DNA from: a phage
Length of the DNA: 64,000 bases
Sequence record: PZ476263.1
Reading direction: 5' to 3' (one strand)
Under the pieces are notes generated by a model. That model was not told the origin of the DNA. It saw only the letters and a list, made by a program, of their open reading frames with translations, and did no database searches. Below, piece after piece: positions 18,965-25,962 of this stretch. The stretch's first letter is position 1, and every line of letters begins with the position of its first letter. A program made the position numbers and the translations under genes.

Positions 18965-19047
18965 GCGCGGGTGTATCTCAACGGTCTTCTAAACCGTCGT
19001 TAATCGAGTAATTGGAGTATGAAGGTTCGAGTCCTTCCTCCCGCGCT
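18965..19047 (+). tRNA. tRNA-like element, atypical (canonical anticodon arm with UCU and T-arm, but no canonical D-arm or encoded CCA)
   Basis: acceptor GCGCGGG/CCCGCGC; ACGGU-CUUCUAA-ACCGU anticodon hairpin; GAAGG-TTCGAGT-CCTTC T-arm. Confidence 0.35.
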
Positions 19048-19064
19048 AAGTTCTTTTAAATGCA

Positions 19065-19140
19065 GGCCCTTTAGCTCAGTGGTTAGAGCAGGCGACTCAT
19101 AATCGCTTGGTCGCTGGTTCAAGTCCGGCAAGGGCCACCA
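19065..19140 (+). tRNA. tRNA with CAT anticodon; anticodon stem and acceptor resemble enterobacterial tRNA-Ile2 (lysidine) rather than elongator Met
   Basis: GGCCCTT acceptor, GCTC/GAGC D-stem, GGCGA-CTCATAA-TCGCT anticodon arm, TTCAAGT T-loop, encoded CCA. Confidence 0.8.
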
Positions 19141-19157
19141 CTCAATAGTTTATTTAC

Positions 19158-19249
19158 AAGATCATTCAGTAATTAAGCGAATGCCGGAAGCAGAACCGGA
19201 TCAACAAATGCGTACGGGTGTCATCGCCACCTAGCAACTGAATGATCTT
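19158..19249 (+). other. long stem-loop RNA element (13-bp perfect inverted repeat flanking 66 nt), followed by U-run; possible terminator or small RNA
   Basis: AAGATCATTCAGT (19158-19170) and ACTGAATGATCTT (19237-19249); internal CCGG-aagcagaa-CCGG hairpin. Confidence 0.45.
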
Positions 19250-19332
19250 TTAAATTCTCTTAACCTCATAAAATCCTTGACATAATAAGAAATTCCTGAT
19301 AACATCTCTATATCGACTTAATTGAGGTGCTT

Positions 19333-19707
19333 ATGCCTAAAGCTGAAATCGTTACTAGAAAACGGGGTCGGCCTACTACAGAGGAAAGTATCGCTATCAA
19401 CACCGAGAAGGCGATTCTTCATGCTCGTTCAGAGTTTGCAAGACTTACTCCTCAGGCGATTAAGACTCTGGAAGGTCTACTCACTTCCGGTACAGAGAAA
19501 GTTAAAGAAACTACTGCGAAGTATATTCTTGAACAGGCTGAAAAAGCTAACAATCTGTACACGATGGAAGATAATGAGGAAGATTTAGCGGGAGGTTCAA
19601 CTTCTGCGGATTCTGATACTCATAAAGGCCCTTCTGATGTATTTAAGGATGCAATTCCTCTTACTACTCAAATCAGAGAGTATAAAATTGCAGAAGGTGA
19701 AAACTAA
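19333..19707 (+). CDS. hypothetical protein with N-terminal basic KRGRPT segment
   Basis: 124 aa from ATG at 19333. Confidence 0.4.
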   Translation: MPKAEIVTRKRGRPTTEESIAINTEKAILHARSEFARLTPQAIKTLEGLLTSGTEKVKETTAKYILEQAEKANNLYTMEDNEEDLAGGSTSADSDTHKGPSDVFKDAIPLTTQIREYKIAEGEN

Positions 19708-19728
19708 AGGCTCTTAGGGGCCTTTTAT
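19707..19728 (+). terminator. putative intrinsic terminator
   Basis: AGGCTC-ttag-GGGCCT hairpin followed by TTTTATT. Confidence 0.4.
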
Positions 19729-19946
19729 TAATAGTTCTTTTTAATGTAGTTGCTTGGTGTAATTTTTCGGCAGATGGCTGCAACCATCCTATCGATAACT
19801 CATAGTTAGTGCTGCAAACACTGGCTACCTTAAAGAGAATTTAACTCGTCGAATAAGGAAGATGCTGATCTCAAAGTGAGGTCACTTACCGCAAGGGGTG
19901 TGCATAGACTCCCGCTTCCGAATAGACTATGTGGCGAGATGTATTT

Positions 19947-20028
19947 GGGGACGTGGCAGAGCGGTCGAATGCGCCTGACTGTAAATCAGGTATCCCACAC
20001 GGTGGTTCGAATCCATCCGGCCCCACCA
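19947..20028 (+). tRNA. tRNA-Tyr (GTA)
   Basis: CCTGA-CTGTAAA-TCAGG anticodon arm, GGTGG-TTCGAAT-CCATC T-arm, acceptor CGGCCCC-A-CCA; overall like enterobacterial tRNA-Tyr. Confidence 0.75.
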
Positions 20029-20282
20029 AATTAAGAAGCAGGGTCGCTACCTGCAAGTCGTCGGACTGAGATTCCCTGAATAAGACCCGACTTTAAGGCG
20101 TACAAATGTTCGGTTTAAAGTCCCTTATCTCACAGTCGAAACGGCGCATCCTATTCAGCCGTGATGTGATGTAATCACTGACCTCTTTGAAGGATCATGG
20201 CATCCTATACAAAAAAAAAACCTGAATAATTTAGGTTTTAATGCCTGGGGGTTCGTAGCCCTATTACTAAGAGGACTTAACT

Positions 20283-20492
20283 ATGTTTACTATTAAAATT
20301 ATTGATATCGATGGAAATGAGACGGGTGTTTCAACAAGGCACTACAGATGGTACTCAAAAATGAATATTTTTGATGTGGAGGGTGGAGAATCTGTTTCTG
20401 TACCACCAAAAAGTCGTGCTTATGTAATGAATGACAAAGGAATAACCATCGGTAGATACACAAATACAGCGGATCAACGCGTTCTTAATTAA
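20283..20492 (+). CDS. hypothetical protein
   Basis: 69 aa ORF between tRNAs. Confidence 0.35.
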   Translation: MFTIKIIDIDGNETGVSTRHYRWYSKMNIFDVEGGESVSVPPKSRAYVMNDKGITIGRYTNTADQRVLN

Positions 20493-20493
20493 A

Positions 20494-20568
<75 letters not shown>

Positions 20569-20667
20569 AACACATATCCATCTGACGCGTTTATGGGGTT
20601 GACCTGATCAATCTTCTCCTAATTTCGTGTGAAGACATCATGATTGTTGGGATGGATAAACTTATTT

Positions 20668-20742
20668 TGGGGATTAGCCAAGCGGTAAGGCATCGGATTT
20701 TGATTCCGACATTCACTGGTTCGAGTCCAGTATCCCCAGCCA
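20668..20742 (+). tRNA. tRNA-Gln (TTG)
   Basis: TGGGGAT...AAGCGGTAAGG...CGGATTTTGATTCCG...GGTTCGAGTCC...CCCCAGCCA; very close to E. coli tRNA-Gln. Confidence 0.85.
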
Positions 20743-20747
20743 ATTAA

Positions 20748-20824
20748 CGGTGTGTAGCGCAGCTTGGTAGCGCATCTGGTTTGGGGCCAGAGGGCCGTTG
20801 GTTCGAATCCAACTACACCGACCA
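20748..20824 (+). tRNA. tRNA-Pro (TGG)
   Basis: CGGTGTG TAGCGCAGCTTGGTAGCGCA TCTGG-TTTGGGG-CCAGA ... GGTTCGAATCC ... CACCGACCA; very close to E. coli tRNA-Pro. Confidence 0.85.
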
Positions 20825-20900: not shown

Positions 20901-20914
20901 TTTGGTCTTTCGGT

Positions 20915-20923
20915 GATAAAATA
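20915..20923 (+). promoter_or_regulatory. late-type promoter element GATAAAATA (extended -10-like TGnTAAAAT)
   Basis: gTGATAAAATAc 17 nt upstream of spanin start; same motif recurs upstream of other late operons. Confidence 0.45.
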
Positions 20924-20939
20924 CTCAAAGGAGGTAATC

Positions 20940-21302
20940 ATGCCAGATTTTAAAAAATATTTATTCATTGCTATATTCATAGTGTTCTTAATTTCATCTG
21001 CTAAGCTTTATCTTAATCATGTTGAATCAGTAGGTTACGAAAAAGGTTTCAATGTTGCTAACTCTGCTTGGGTAAAAAAGGCAGGGGAGTACAAAAAGAA
21101 AATTGACGATACATATGAAGAAAACAAGCGTCTTAACGAGGAGCTTTCCCGATCCAATCAGGAAAAGATAAAGGATGAAAAGGCAAAAGAAGAAAAAATT
21201 ACCGATATGCAGATCGAATACTACAAGTCTGAAAAAGGTAAGGATGTCTTTGACAATAATGAAATAATTGACATATACAACGAATCCTTGGGGGTAAAAT
21301 GA
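20940..21302 (+). CDS. i-spanin-like protein (N-terminal TM helix + periplasmic coiled coil)
   Basis: MPDFKKYLFIAIFIVFLISSAKLYL TM followed by charged coiled-coil; ATG at 20940 after AGGAGG RBS. Confidence 0.5.
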   Translation: MPDFKKYLFIAIFIVFLISSAKLYLNHVESVGYEKGFNVANSAWVKKAGEYKKKIDDTYEENKRLNEELSRSNQEKIKDEKAKEEKITDMQIEYYKSEKGKDVFDNNEIIDIYNESLGVK

Positions 21303-21598
21303 GAAAAATATTTATAGCTTTCTTCTTTTGCTTTTTACTTTCCGGTTGTCAATCAGCAGAAATCTGTGGCCCTACGGAAGAAGTAACTATTGAGAAGATT
21401 CTTCCTAAACCTGATCTTGAACTCCTTGTCAAAGAAAAGGAAAAGAAGCTCATCCAGAAGGGATCTACTAATGCAGACGTTGGAAAGGTCATGAGTGATA
21501 ACAATCTTCGTTCCAATCGTATAGAGCGCCGTTGGGAAGGCTTAAGGACTTACGTTTGCAACAGTTTCAAAAATATCCCTAAAGAATACTGCGATTAA
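21299..21598 (+). CDS. o-spanin-like outer-membrane lipoprotein
   Basis: signal peptide with lipobox FLLSGC; ATGA overlap with upstream i-spanin-like gene. Confidence 0.5.
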   Translation: MRKIFIAFFFCFLLSGCQSAEICGPTEEVTIEKILPKPDLELLVKEKEKKLIQKGSTNADVGKVMSDNNLRSNRIERRWEGLRTYVCNSFKNIPKEYCD

Positions 21599-21606
21599 CA
21601 TTGACA

Positions 21607-21638
21607 GGCCCTTGCTTTTATGCAAGGGCTTTATTTTT
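21607..21638 (+). terminator. intrinsic terminator
   Basis: GGCCCTTGC-ttttat-GCAAGGGCT followed by TTATTTTT. Confidence 0.6.
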
Positions 21639-21650
21639 AGTGCTTTTTGT

Positions 21651-21659
21651 GGTAATATA
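21651..21659 (+). promoter_or_regulatory. late-type promoter element GGTAATATA (variant of GATAAAATA)
   Basis: tgTGGTAATATAcc 37 nt upstream of terminase start. Confidence 0.35.
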
Positions 21660-21695
21660 CCTTTTATCGACAGAAGTCAATAGTTAAGGAGAATT

Positions 21696-22050
21696 ATGTC
21701 TGCTACATTCGCACCTGCGAGTCGCAAGCAACAAATGGTTCTCGAATCTACAGCACAGATTATGGTAATAGGTGGTGCAGCAGGATCAGGTAAATCATAC
21801 CTTTTACAGTTGATGCCTTTGCTTATTGTAAACGACCCTAAAACAGCCTGCATCATGTTTCGTCGTACTGTACCGCAGATTCGTGGACAAGGTGGCTTGT
21901 TTGACAAAGCTAAAGATATTTATAACCAGCTGCCTCCGGTAGTTAAGCCGAAGTTTAAAGAGAACGAGATGACTGCTACATTCCCTAACGGAGCAACCGT
22001 TAAGTGGCAGTCTATGCAACACGTAAGTGATAAATACGACATCCAGGGGT
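21696..22050 (+). CDS. terL: terminase large subunit, exon 1 (Walker A ATPase segment)
   Basis: IGGAAGSGKSY Walker A; frame terminates at TAA 22050-22052 inside predicted intron 1; predicted 5' splice site after U22050. Confidence 0.6.
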
Positions 22051-22960
22051 AAAAATTTCCTGCCCATCGTATCTTAATCGGTGAAACTCTGTTATAATAA
22101 GTACAGACAATACCGAGATCCATTACCTGAAATGACAGTAGGGAGATATGATGAAAAAATTTGAAATTGTTCCAAGCAAACCTGAATTTTCCGTAAGTGA
22201 AGACGGGCTGATTATGTTTACCTCTACAGGTACTATTCTTAAGCCGTATGTTGATAAGGATGGTTACCACAGGGTTAGAAATTTCTCTGCTGGAGGTAAA
22301 TCTCATTACATCGCCGTTCATCGCGCCGTTGCTGAGGTTTTTGTTAAAAACCCTAACCCAAAAGTGTTTAAGATTGTTAATCACTTGGATAATGTTAAGA
22401 GCAACAATCATAAAACCAATTTGGAATGGACAACCGAATCATTAAACCGAGTTCATGCAGTTCATGCCAACGGTACAGCATCTGTTAGAAACAATGTTAA
22501 ATTTACAGAAGGTCAAGTCAGAAAGGTGTGTGAACTTTTGAGCTTGGGCTATCGGATAGTTGATATTGTGAAACTTACAGGCGTTGATAGATTCAATGTG
22601 ATGGCAATTAGAAGCGGAAAATCTTGGGTTCAGATCTCTTGTGAGTTTGAAACTTTAAAAGTAGAAAGAAAAGATACACTGTCTGAAAAGACGATTCTTT
22701 GGATTAAAGACCAAATTAATCGCCAAAGGTCAGATGATGAAATACTTTTAATGTCGGTAAGACTTACAAAAGAAGAGCTTGAAAGAGCAAAGAAGATTAT
22801 TTCATTGATGGATTGTAACGACTAATGCTGATGAGTGTAAGCATGTAGGGCCAAGCGGTCCGAAACGATACGCCAAGGATGGAAGATATAGTCTGAACTA
22901 TATGGTGACATATAGCTGCTTAAGCAGGGTTAAGATTAGCGATCTTAATCGAACACAATG
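22051..22960 (+). mobile_element. group I intron 1 (about 910 nt) with internal HNH homing endonuclease ORF
   Basis: S element AAGATATAGTC at 22883-22893, R-like AACGACTAA at 22818-22825, P9 hairpin CTATATG-GTGA-CATATAG (GNRA loop), candidate IGS GCCC near 5' end, 3' end ...GAACACAATG. Confidence 0.6.
22148..22825 (+). CDS. intron-encoded HNH homing endonuclease
   Basis: DGYHRV...HRAVAEVF...NHLDNVKSNNHKTNLEW HNH core; lies wholly between terminase exons. Confidence 0.65.
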   Translation: MMKKFEIVPSKPEFSVSEDGLIMFTSTGTILKPYVDKDGYHRVRNFSAGGKSHYIAVHRAVAEVFVKNPNPKVFKIVNHLDNVKSNNHKTNLEWTTESLNRVHAVHANGTASVRNNVKFTEGQVRKVCELLSLGYRIVDIVKLTGVDRFNVMAIRSGKSWVQISCEFETLKVERKDTLSEKTILWIKDQINRQRSDDEILLMSVRLTKEELERAKKIISLMDCND

Positions 22961-23014
22961 TGGAATTTACATTTATAGGTGTGGACGAAGGCACTCAGTT
23001 TGAGTGGGAGCAGT
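22961..23014 (+). CDS. terL: terminase large subunit, exon 2 (54-nt micro-exon encoding Walker B-like FTFIGVDEGTQFEWEQ)
   Basis: in-frame segment between two intron cores; hydrophobic stretch + DE typical of terminase Walker B. Confidence 0.5.
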
Positions 23015-23341
23015 TAATCTAGCTGCCTCGTACAGTAATGTACGATGAGAAATTCTTGTGAATTGCTGGAAAATCCTTAGAGCTTGTAAAACTACAACAT
23101 GACCTGCAAAGGTGAGTGTGAATGTTAAAAATTTACAAGATTGGACGATCAGCCTCCAAGCCTCTTTACGAGAGGAAGGTTCAACGACTAGCCGAAAGGC
23201 GTAGATCATAAGCAAATGATGATCGAAGTGCAAGACCCCTACCTTATTGGTAGGGTGAAGATATAGTCTGATCTGCATGGTAACATGCAGCAGTGCTTGA
23301 GTGCACGGCAACGAACTTGCGATCCGTTGCGAACATAACAG
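23015..23341 (+). mobile_element. group I intron 2 (about 327 nt, ORF-less)
   Basis: IGS-like GCTGC pairing with exon GCAGU; R-like GTTCAACGACTAG 23179-23191; S AAGATATAGTC 23258-23268; P9 CTGCATG-GTAA-CATGCAG; 3' end ...GAACATAACAG. Confidence 0.55.
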
Positions 23342-24420
23342 TAGAATACATGATGTCTCGTCTTCGTTCCAGTTCTTCTTACCCTTCACGAATGGTAATT
23401 AGTTGTAACCCTGATCCTGATCATTATCTTCGTAAGATGGTTGATTGGTATCTCGATAAGGATGGTTATCCTGATCCTACAAAGGATGGAGTCATTCGAT
23501 ATTTCGTTCGAGTTGATGACCAATACATGTGGGGCGAATCAGTAGAAGAGCTTAAGAAGCGGTACGGTAAGAAATGTAAGCCTGTTTCTTTTACATTTAT
23601 ATCTTCTACTATTTACGATAACCCACCAATGCTTATTAACAACCCAGACTATCTAGCACAGCTGGAAGGTCTTAATGAGGTTGACAGAGCAAGACTGTTA
23701 CACGGCAACTGGGATGCACGTCCTCAGGGTGCTAACTATTTTAAACGTTCTTTTCTTAAAGAGGTTGATGTTCTTCCTTTAGGTGTAGATAAGGTTAGAT
23801 CATACGATAAAGCAGGAACTGAACGTTCTACAGGTAATAAAACACCTGACTTTACAGCCGGAATCGGTGTGGCGAGAGATCAGGACGGAATTTATTATCT
23901 TTTTGGCGATTATTGTGAAGAGTTTGTTGATGAAGGTGATTGGTCTACTGGCAACCTTGGTAGGTTCTGTAAGAAAGCTGGTGAACGAGATACGATCATT
24001 ATGAAACAAGCAATTCATGACGGTGATGATGTTAGAATAATATTCCCTGTTGACCCTGGTCAAGCGGGTATTGCTGAATTCACTACATCTTCCCGAGAAT
24101 TATTAAATCAAGGATTCATTGTTGAGAAAGACCCAACTCCTGGTAACAAGAAGAAGCTTGTACGCTTCTCTCCGTTTGCTAACCTTGCTCAGAACGGATT
24201 TGTTAGGATTGTTAAAAAGTCTTTCCCTTTGGATACCTATGAAGCATTAATGAAAGAGCTTGAATCTTTCAATGGTGAAAGGTCAACAGGGACACGTAAA
24301 GATGACTGGGTGGATGCTATCTCAACCGGAATAAATTTCCTTGAGAAAACAGAAATAGTCAGGGCTGTTACAATACCACGACCTTCTGCCCCAACACTTT
24401 ATTCGAAGTATCGACGATAA
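23342..24420 (+). CDS. terL: terminase large subunit, exon 3 (nuclease domain)
   Basis: continues ...EYMMSRLRSSSSYPSRMVISCNPDP...; acidic nuclease motifs DQDGIYYLFGDY, DPGQAGIA, DDWVDAISTG. Confidence 0.6.
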
Positions 24421-24429
24421 CCGAGGGGA

Positions 24430-25962
24430 ATGATTTTGAAAAATAAGAAAAGTCGTAAAACTAATGTTCGCAAAGCAACTAGCGAAGAATTAAATGTTTC
24501 TCGTCTTCGTATGAGTGAACAAGGTACTTTTGCACTGGCTAAGGTTCAGATCGAAACTGAACGAATGAAAGCCGAAGAAATTAAATGGCCTCAGCTTATC
24601 GGTACTGTTGAAGCTATGAAGCAAGATGCTACGGTAGCGACTGGCCTTGATATGCTGTATACTTTCGTAGAAAAAGCATTTAAGGATTTTAAAGTTATTC
24701 CTGGTAAATCAAAAGAATCACAGGATGCTGCCGACTTTATCACTTATTGTTTGAAGAATATGGAAGGACAAACTCTTCGCCAGTTTGCTCGTGATGCTGC
24801 AACATTTAATGAATACGGAATCTCCGTAGTAGAAAAAGTTTATACGCAGATCCTTACTGGTGAATATGCTGGCAAGTTTAAAATTAAAAATCTTGCTTTC
24901 CGACCACAAGCGTCTTTAAGTCGTAAAAATCCTCTCGTATATAGCGATGACGGTTCTAGAGTAATTGGCGTTAAACAGACCCTTACTTCTTTCAAGAATT
25001 ACACAAATAGCGTATTGGGCAATAGTTCTGGATTTATTGGTTCTCGCAACGGTGATGATGTTATCATTCCTGCAAACAAGGTTATGATCATGACCACTGG
25101 CGGATCTTCGTCTCAGGCACTAGGCGTTTCACCTCTGGTTGCTTGCTATCGACCTTGGCGTGAAAAGGTTCTGATTGAAAACTTAGAAGTTGTTGGTGCT
25201 ACAAAAGATATGGGCGGTGTTATCGAATTAAAGATACCTTCTTCCATACTTAACAAAGCTGCAATTGACCCATCAAGCTACGAAGCTGAAATGGTTCAGG
25301 GTCTAATGGCTGACGCAGCCAACGCCCACTCTGGTGAGCAATCTTTCTTTATGCTGCCTTCTGACACTAAAGATAACGCTCCTTTATACTCAATGTCTCT
25401 GAAAGGCATTGACGGTATGGGTAAACAGTACAGCACTCGTGACCTTATCAGTGATCGTAAGAAATCAATCCTTGATCGTTTGGGAGCAGGATTCCTTAAC
25501 GTGGGTAATGATGATGCTGGTTCTTATAATCTGTCTGAGTCTAAGCAAACAATCCACACTCAATTTGTACAACGTGTAAATGAAATTATTGCTGAAGCAT
25601 TAAATGAGAATTTACTCCCTCAGCTTCTGGCATTAAATGGTATTCGCCTTGAACAAAAAGAAATGCCTTTCATTAAATTCGGTCAGATTGTTGACACAGA
25701 TATGGAAGGATTCTCCAAAGCTGTACAGCGTATGGGTGCTGTAGGTTATCTGCCTAAGACTCCAGAAGTAATCAATAAGATCCTTGACGTACTTGGAATT
25801 GATTATCAGTTGGCAGAAGATATTTCTCAAGAAGACCTTATGTTGCTTCTTGGAGATAATACCAGTCGTTCAGGTGATGGCTTTGCGCCAGGTTCGACAG
25901 GAAACGGGACTGGAAAGATTAGTGCTTCAAGAGACAATTCAATTTCTAACTTAGAAAATTGA
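24430..25962 (+). CDS. portal protein (putative)
   Basis: 510 aa ORF immediately downstream of terminase; size and position typical of portal. Confidence 0.5.
   Translation: MILKNKKSRKTNVRKATSEELNVSRLRMSEQGTFALAKVQIETERMKAEEIKWPQLIGTVEAMKQDATVATGLDMLYTFVEKAFKDFKVIPGKSKESQDAADFITYCLKNMEGQTLRQFARDAATFNEYGISVVEKVYTQILTGEYAGKFKIKNLAFRPQASLSRKNPLVYSDDGSRVIGVKQTLTSFKNYTNSVLGNSSGFIGSRNGDDVIIPANKVMIMTTGGSSSQALGVSPLVACYRPWREKVLIENLEVVGATKDMGGVIELKIPSSILNKAAIDPSSYEAEMVQGLMADAANAHSGEQSFFMLPSDTKDNAPLYSMSLKGIDGMGKQYSTRDLISDRKKSILDRLGAGFLNVGNDDAGSYNLSESKQTIHTQFVQRVNEIIAEALNENLLPQLLALNGIRLEQKEMPFIKFGQIVDTDMEGFSKAVQRMGAVGYLPKTPEVINKILDVLGIDYQLAEDISQEDLMLLLGDNTSRSGDGFAPGSTGNGTGKISASRDNSISNLEN

Follow-up and report, generated by a model that had tools for sequence, protein, structure and literature searches.

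The large terminase gene of an rV5-like phage is split by two introns

We analysed a stretch of phage DNA of 64,000 nucleotides (nt) (sequence record PZ476263.1; hereafter the window), which comes from an rV5-like coliphage of the Vequintavirinae. Its large terminase gene (TerL) is split into three exons by two introns, and the subject of this report is the first of these, intron 1, together with the open reading frame (ORF) for a putative HNH homing endonuclease that it carries. An initial annotation, made from the sequence alone, had placed the intron at 22051-22960 and the ORF at 22148-22825, and had proposed that the stop codon of the ORF sits inside the P7 (R) element of the intron. The locus is laid out as follows, where (+) denotes the plus strand:

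21696-22050 (+): TerL exon 1, 118 codons plus 1 nt, with the 3' end GGGU and U22050 as the 5' splice-site U (UPEC06 TerL alignment; Pfam Terminase_6N)
22050-22052 (+): UAA stop in the frame of exon 1, straddling the 5' splice site (sequence)
22051-22960 (+): intron 1, 910 nt, a td-like group I intron of IA2 type with G22960 as the terminal omega-G
22151-22825 (+): HNH homing-endonuclease gene, 224 amino acids, with a NUMOD4-like N-terminus, an HNH motif and a C-terminal helix-turn-helix region; alternative start at 22148
22961-23014 (+): TerL exon 2, 54 nt, coding for the Walker B segment (L)EFTFIGVDEGTQFEWEQ (UPEC06 alignment)
23015-23341 (+): intron 2, a group I intron without an ORF (Rfam RF00028, 78.7 bits; ends from the UPEC06 alignment)
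23342-24420 (+): TerL exon 3 (UPEC06 alignment; Pfam)

The exon junctions were established by alignment with the intron-less TerL of Escherichia phage UPEC06, and the ends of intron 1 obtained in this way are those given by the initial annotation. When joined, exons 1-3 form a gene of 1488 nt encoding 495 amino acids, which aligns without gaps to UPEC06 TerL and is identical to it at 461 of 496 positions (93%). A megablast of 21600-24500 against the phage collection matched TerL of Escherichia phages UPEC06, A5-4, A7_1 and LTH01 at ~83% identity in two blocks split by unmatched DNA, and all of the TerL relatives matched by this search were intron-less. In these phages, TerL is a single gene of 1488 nt, and the genes of UPEC06, A5-4 and LTH01 align on both sides of intron 1. 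The UPEC06 site that corresponds to the insertion lies between GATATTCAGGGA and TTGGAGTTTACC, just 5' of the Walker B motif. A stop codon in frame across the 5' splice site is a common trait of group I introns (Edgell, Chalamcharla and Belfort 2011, PMC3073962).

Gene callers split the TerL pieces into separate genes, and a weak sigma-70-like match is present at 22132-22160. Both observations would fit a locus without RNA splicing, in which the HNH gene stands alone between terminase fragments that are translated separately and the R and S motifs are relics. However, exon 2 has neither a start codon nor a ribosome-binding site, the three pieces join into a gap-free TerL, and the intron helices covary strongly, including P1 and P10 at the two junctions (see below). 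Furthermore, a scan for promoters and terminators within intron 1 and flanking the ORF, a check on the intron reading that had been suggested at the outset, gave nothing above shuffled expectation; there is therefore no evidence of an independent transcription unit. We consider a free-standing gene hardly credible, and in annotation the three TerL pieces, including the 54-nt middle exon, should be joined.

Intron 1 folds as a compact td-like ribozyme

A model of the intron 1 ribozyme was built by hand and was checked by a thermodynamic fold and by a comparative alignment. The relatives used here are ten metagenome contigs that encode homologues of the HNH protein (L006-L015). The elements of the model, with the support for each from covariation, from the minimum free energy (MFE) fold or from other sources, are:

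22057-22065 (+): internal guide sequence UUCC-U-GCCC (sequence; relatives)
22068-22073 (+): P3 5' strand CGUAUC, pairing with GAUACG at 22867-22872 (covariation; MFE fold)
22078-22116 (+): P4-P5 domain, with P4 UCGGUG 22078-83/UACCGA 22111-16 and P5 UCUGU 22088-92/ACAGA 22103-07 (covariation; MFE fold)
22117-22123 (+): P6 5' strand GAUCCAU, closing the ORF-bearing loop L6 (five of seven pairs changed on both sides)
22808-22814 (+): P6 3' strand (P6') AUGGAUU, inside the ORF codons Met-Asp-Cys (covariation; MFE fold)
22815-22824 (+): R element, J6/7 GUAAC and P7 5' strand GACUA 22820-24, read as (UG)U AAC GAC UA(A)
22825-22861 (+): P7.1 AUGCU 22825-29/AGCAU 22840-44 with loop GAUGAGUGUA, and P7.2 GGGCC 22848-52/GGUCC 22857-61
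22867-22872 (+): P3 3' strand (P3') GAUACG (covariation; MFE fold)
22873-22882 (+): vestigial P8, CCA-AGGA-UGG, 2-3 bp only; 66.7% paired, with only the CC/GG pairs retained
22883-22893 (+): S element, J8/7 AAGAUA and P7 3' strand (P7') UAGUC 22889-93 (Rfam; covariation)
22898-22950 (+): P9 region, with P9 22898-22915 (GUGA tetraloop), P9.1 22916-27 and P9.2 22928-50 (Rfam; covariation; MFE fold)

The features expected of a group I intron are present: a U.G pair at the splice site in P1, a P10 with the 3' exon, a terminal G and conserved R and S sequences. P1 forms between GCCC at 22062-65 and the exon sequence GGGU at 22047-50, and P10 between UUCC at 22057-60 and GGAA at 22962-65 of exon 2. 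The GGGU/GCCC pairing was found in the window and in all ten relatives, and P10 covaries in that, in every member, the best pairing of the L1 stretch immediately 5' of GCCC is with the start of that member's own exon 2. Another P1, CAGGGG/UUCCUG, is favoured by the MFE fold. It was rejected on two grounds: the splice-site U would stay unpaired, and the pairing is not conserved in L008, L009 and L011-L015, whereas GGGU/GCCC is universal.

R, which is GUAACGACUA at 22815-24, and S, which is AAGAUAUAGUC at 22883-93, are identical or nearly identical to the corresponding sequences of intron 2, of T4 td and of the Rfam consensus. The S side (J8/7 and P7') aligned to RF00028 at high posterior probability; the R side (ACGACUA) was recognised by visual inspection and from its homology to intron 2, T4 td and others. 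P7 consists of GACUA 22820-24 paired with UAGUC 22889-93, in agreement with the earlier proposal that an R-like ACGACTA pairs with an S sequence at 22883, where AAGATATAGTC indeed begins. P7.1 and P7.2, which lie between P7 and P3', are extensions confined to subgroup IA, and they are supported by covariation, by the MFE fold and by alignment with T4 td. P9.1 and P9.2, like these two, were found as in subgroup IA2, by covariation and the T4 td alignment.

The covariation alignment, from which the ORF was removed, held 10 rows, namely the window and nine relatives; L015 was obtained later and was left out. Standard pairs filled 86.6% of the alignment cells, compared to 35-38% in controls in which the 3' partners were slid by 1-3 columns. 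Changes on both sides were seen at 37 pairs versus 11-18 in the slid controls, and none of 500 shuffles matched the observed values. P7 was 100% paired, with a double compensatory change in L009 (GAUCA/UGAUC), and P3 was 89-97% paired, again with compensatory changes. P6, the helix that closes the ORF loop, showed compensatory changes at five of its seven pairs. 

Folding the RNA with the ORF excised, a calculation proposed in the initial annotation, gave an unconstrained MFE structure of -70.6 kcal/mol (z = -3.56) that recovers P3, P4, P5, P6, P7.1, P7.2, P8, P9, P9.1 and P9.2 as in the hand-built model. Since P7 makes a pseudoknot with P3, a fold of this kind is unable to show it.

Because the upstream sequence ends in GGGU and GCCC follows it in 10 of 10 relatives, we take these introns to be one lineage at one site. 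In the eight relative loci whose contigs span both flanks, the HNH gene is flanked by TerL fragments. No match to the first 120 nt of intron 1 was found by blastn in the phage collection, and neither a scan with the HNH protein nor a scan with a 20-nt P3-P4 pattern found anything among the IMG/VR viral contigs.

The ORF in L6 encodes a putative I-HmuI-type endonuclease

The ORF at 22148-22825 (225 amino acids) is present as first described. Its likelier start is the second ATG, at 22151, because a GGGAG Shine-Dalgarno sequence (22141-45) sits 5 nt upstream and the homologues begin MKKFEIVP. The initial annotation had given about 95 nt of intron ahead of the ORF, and 97 nt were counted (100 up to the second ATG). 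From this short leader it had been argued that either the 5' core must be compact or the start of the ORF overlaps core helices. The first alternative holds, in that the 5' core fits within 73 nt (22051-22123), owing to the absence of P2 and a short P5. The second does not, as the ORF starts 27 nt past P6 and no core helix is overlapped at its 5' end.

By its sequence, the ORF product is an HNH endonuclease of the I-HmuI type. Residues 12-113, the N-terminal and HNH region, match the I-HmuI structure PDB 1U3E (E=3.6e-12). A metagenome protein search returned 47 homologues, ten of them of equal length and 43-96% identity, and many carry PF13392. H78, N86, N90, N99 and H102 are invariant across 12 aligned homologues of 31-96% identity, and so is the motif of I-HmuI-type enzymes, VNH(78)L...NN...N(90)LEWT...N(99)..H(102), in the 12 sequences. 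The longer pattern HRAVAE...VNHL...NN...NLEWT...N..H is invariant or nearly so when the homologues are aligned with the HNH protein of rV5 ORF65. This conservation argues for a functional enzyme under purifying selection.

Between P6 and the start codon lies a further conserved feature:

22126-22145 (+): conserved motif CCUGAA-N-AGUAGGG, running into the Shine-Dalgarno sequence GGGAG (22141-45)

In the form CCUGAA-N3-5-AGUA(A/G)GG, this motif is present in a single copy per locus, both in the window and in nine of the ten relatives, while the flanking P6 varies. It may form a hairpin that occludes the ribosome-binding site or one that is loop-E-like. Values for the accessibility of the ribosome-binding site were mixed among the four members for which they were computed, and we make no claim of a hidden site. 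As separate observations, the GAA/AGUA portion resembles loop E (sarcin-ricin), and the AGG of the ribosome-binding site is a possible pairing partner of CCU; in L014, a CCUC...GAGG hairpin across the Shine-Dalgarno sequence is found in place of the motif.

The end of the ORF overlaps the ribozyme core, and the endpoint drifts

The last six codons of the ORF, AUG GAU UGU AAC GAC UAA (M-D-C-N-D-stop), also make up P6', J6/7 and the 5' strand of P7. With the first base of P7.1, the overlap amounts to 18 nt (22808-22825). Its final codon is placed as follows:

22823-22825 (+): UAA stop of the HNH ORF, in which U22823 and A22824 form the last two pairs of P7 (with A22890 and U22889) and A22825, the first base of P7.1, pairs with U22844

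Consequently, the stop codon does overlap the R-like ACGACTA, as the initial annotation had it. Its companion proposal, that the ORF is embedded in a peripheral loop upstream of P7, is also upheld; the loop is L6, closed by P6 (22117-23/22808-14).

Nine of the ten relatives keep the frame UGU AAC GAC/GAU across J6/7 and P7, and L011 uses another frame. Eight of these nine read on into P7, and the remaining one, L007, stops before it. The stops fall at the following positions:

L007: UAG within P6', 7 nt ahead of the R element
Window, L010, L006 and L013: UAA or UAG at the P7/P7.1 junction
L008, L009, L014 and L012: UGA or UAA in the P7.1 loop, the junction being read as UAU or CAG so that translation would continue
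L011: UAA, again in the P7.1 loop but in another reading frame
L015: UGA directly after UAGUC, past P7.1, P7.2, P3', P8, J8/7 and P7'

Counted from the first base of GUAAC, the lineage therefore has four endpoints, at -7, +8, +14/+15 and +77 nt. The L015 ORF stops 77 nt beyond the start of R, an overlap of ~87 nt when counted from P6', which is to our knowledge among the longest overlaps of an ORF with an intron core. We also note that this ORF (P0009, 243 amino acids) reads through P6' to P7' at L015 1150-1232. Whether the junction is read as stop or sense is set by the first pair of P7.1: with A-U or G-C the ORF ends there, and with U-A the codon is Tyr. The next stop is then provided by the conserved P7.1 loop CUGAUGAG; in L015 the loop is GAAA, and the ORF runs on.

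Such endpoints are predicted by the 'core creep' model, in which an ORF extends from a peripheral loop into the core (Edgell, Chalamcharla and Belfort 2011, PMC3073962), and the same paper lists other introns in which as much as 81 nt of ORF and core overlap. Judged from the sequences compared, the overlap characterises the family while its endpoint drifts; it is not a fixed switch.

One could nevertheless suppose that the stop within P7 is a selected regulatory switch that times TerL maturation against endonuclease synthesis, instead of a neutral by-product. Four of the 11 family sequences (the window, L010, L006 and L013) do stop at exactly this position, and the passages of PMC3073962 that cite Gibb and Edgell 2010 provide a precedent, in that untimely translation of I-TevI impairs splicing of T4 td. 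However, homologues at the same site stop elsewhere, in P6' (L007), in the P7.1 loop (L008, L009, L012, L014 and L011) or after P7' (L015), and the toggle between stop and sense tracks the first P7.1 pair, as expected of drift under RNA constraint. Because the stop position drifts among the relatives, we take its exact placement in P7 to be a by-product of RNA constraint and drift and not a tuned switch, which we consider quite improbable.

The same series of endpoints may be read in another way, as a natural step-by-step record of core creep: a swap of the P7.1 pair would turn the stop into Tyr, the loop CUGAUGAG would act as a backstop, the tetraloop of L015 would allow run-on, and the added C-terminal tails might be functional. 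This proposal is doubtful. Provided that these tails, and the act of translating them, are of consequence, the family would lend itself to studies of how one sequence codes for both RNA and protein and of how translation is coupled to splicing, with timing of TerL maturation or an action on the ribozyme as one possible role.

A probable mobile intron with a reduced core

Taken together, we consider that intron 1 is a mobile td-like IA2 group I intron in TerL, with an I-HmuI-like HNH gene looped out from P6 and an overlap into P7 that arose by core creep, and we assign this reading a probability of about 0.88. Several results weigh against it. P2, which subgroup IA2 would lead one to expect, is not present in intron 1, where the P1 strand and P3 are just AU (22066-67) apart. 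P8 is cut to 2-3 bp, which is unusual for an autonomous ribozyme. In Rfam scans of the intact sequence, only intron 2 was returned at the gathering threshold, and a permissive scan gave a partial RF00028 match to the 3' half of intron 1 (22793-22915) of 23.6 bits, below the gathering value of 50; the score is low because the 675-nt ORF splits the model. The Pfam scores of the protein, 16.6 for HNH_3 (cut-off 24.8) and 18.8 for NUMOD4 (cut-off 23.4), are both below gathering. Finally, RNAalifold found no consensus structure, and no conserved hairpin that would hide the ribosome-binding site, in the region from P6 to the start codon.

The reduced core raises the question of whether the ribozyme is crippled and needs a protein cofactor to splice, be it the HNH protein in the role of a maturase or a chaperone of host or phage origin. 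In the window and in L006-L010, P8 retains only CC/GG and a third pair that varies, the third pair being lost in L006-L009. P2, absent from the window and from L014, is present in L011-L013, in L015 and in T4 td, and P8 is of full length in L011-L015 and T4 td. Set against this, every other core helix is intact and covaries, as do J8/7, J6/7 and the GNRA loop L9, and the form without P2 and with a short P8 has been retained in six diverged phages, in each of which the essential TerL relies on it. In addition, we know of no maturase activity in HNH enzymes of the I-HmuI type. Dependence on a cofactor is thus improbable, and a very reduced IA2 core, without P2 and with almost no P8, must still work in an essential gene.

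Our analysis establishes the exon junctions, the covarying fold, the overlap of ORF and core with its variable endpoint, and the HNH family, and from these we infer how a mobile td-like intron would operate at this locus. The RNA folds into P1 and P10, P3-P9, P7.1, P7.2, P9.1 and P9.2, and the pre-mRNA would splice itself, joining U22050 to U22961 to give the TerL mRNA. From L6, the ORF has extended across P6' and J6/7 to take in the 5' strand of P7, such that its last six codons serve as both protein and core. Ribosomes that translate exon 1 would stop at the UAA at 22050-52. A ribosome that finishes the HNH ORF would have to unwind P6, P7 and P7.1, so that any one RNA could either be translated for the endonuclease or be spliced, but not both at once. 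Translation and splicing would then interfere with one another, by analogy with T4 td; the initial annotation had likewise suggested that translation and ribozyme folding compete at this point. In mixed infections, the HNH enzyme would presumably nick or cut intron-less TerL alleles near the Walker B codons, leading to homing of the intron; target alleles of this kind exist in UPEC06, A5-4 and LTH01.

Neighbouring features and related loci

The position of other TerL insertions varies among these phages. Intron 2 of the window is inserted after ...FEWEQ (between 23014 and 23015). In L010, a 96%-identical twin, and in L006 and L007, the next TerL intron sits within the Walker B motif, between GVD and E, and TerL of L009 has an additional insert that carries an HTH_23 ORF.

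Upstream of the spanin and terminase block, the window has a cluster of six tRNA genes (18967-20821), as in rV5. Two small ORFs (129 and 99 amino acids; 20913-21598) occupy the position of the Rz-like spanin pair of rV5, and the second begins in a lipoprotein-like manner with LLSGC. After these ORFs and just before TerL lies a strong hairpin that resembles an intrinsic terminator (21606-21631). In L008, a gene with a match to Pfam Gad2 (PF26128, Gabija anti-defence) is found at 47-1276, upstream of the spanin and TerL block.

Comparison with known systems

The closest parallel to the architecture described here is the T4 td intron with I-TevI. Both are group I introns of subgroup IA2 whose exon 1 ends in GGGU, whose ORF is looped out from P6, and whose ORF has its 3' end in the core. 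The 3' half of T4 td aligns well with the window over R, P7.1, P7.2, P3', J8/7 and P9 to P9.2. In T4 td, the last 20 nt of I-TevI form P6/P6a and P7 (PMC3073962). The two differ in endonuclease family and host gene, GIY-YIG and td in T4 compared to HNH and TerL in the window, and T4 td has P2 and a long P8, whereas intron 1 lacks P2 and has a P8 of 2-3 bp. They also differ in the placement of the stop. From the T4 sequence we determined that the I-TevI stop is the UAA of J6/7 abutting CGACUA; in the window, this UAA (22816-18) is out of frame, and the HNH stop follows 7 nt later, at the P7/P7.1 junction. In the passages of PMC3073962 that treat interference between translation and splicing, T4 td is the only intron for which it is described as demonstrated.

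Intron 2 of rV5 TerL, with the HNH gene ORF65, shares with intron 1 the phage subfamily, the host gene, the HNH family (31-34% identity) and the location of the ORF in the P6 loop, and rV5 TerL is annotated as a three-piece join with the HNH gene inside. Here too the end of the ORF overlaps the core, but the stop of ORF65 lies in P6', 12 nt before ACGACUA, and P7 of rV5 is for this reason non-coding. The rV5 intron is inserted elsewhere, after ...FIGATI, ~95 codons downstream, and its 5' half has no detectable similarity to that of intron 1. From the sequences in hand, TerL is a hot spot for introns, with polymorphic insertion sites. In Pectobacterium phage CB7 (Certrevirus), an HNH-bearing TerL intron splices, as determined by RT-PCR (reverse transcription PCR; PMC7344957); by its description, it resembles the window in being an HNH-bearing intron in TerL of the Vequintavirinae.

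I-HmuI, encoded in the DNA polymerase intron of phage SPO1, shares with the window the N-terminal and HNH region of its endonuclease and a phage group I intron as carrier, and differs in the host gene and host phylum. In SPO1 the ORF lies in the P8 loop and overlaps just 9 nt of P8 (Table 1 of PMC3073962). The introns of FelixO1-like nrdD and of the tape-measure gene of Vibrio phage vB_CoeS_P1 (its intron 1) are ~70% identical to the window over the 3' half, beginning exactly at R. However, they lie in other host genes, have full-length P2 and P8, and have no HNH ORF of the window family in L6. In vB_CoeS_P1 we also observed four tandem RF00028 matches of 50-74 bits (L003 2365-3551) between two ORFs annotated as tail length tape measure protein.

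The overlap of the HNH ORF with the ribozyme core is thus real and well known as an arrangement, namely core creep as in T4 td, and HNH-bearing TerL introns were already known in this subfamily from rV5 and CB7. Intron 1 adds a further example of an endonuclease ORF extending into the core, in which the same bases are under RNA and protein constraint, and current understanding is not overturned by it. What is new is the lineage itself, an HNH-bearing td-like intron in TerL of rV5-like phages. Comparison among its members offers an unusually clean illustration, within a single lineage, of the drifting endpoint that core creep predicts.

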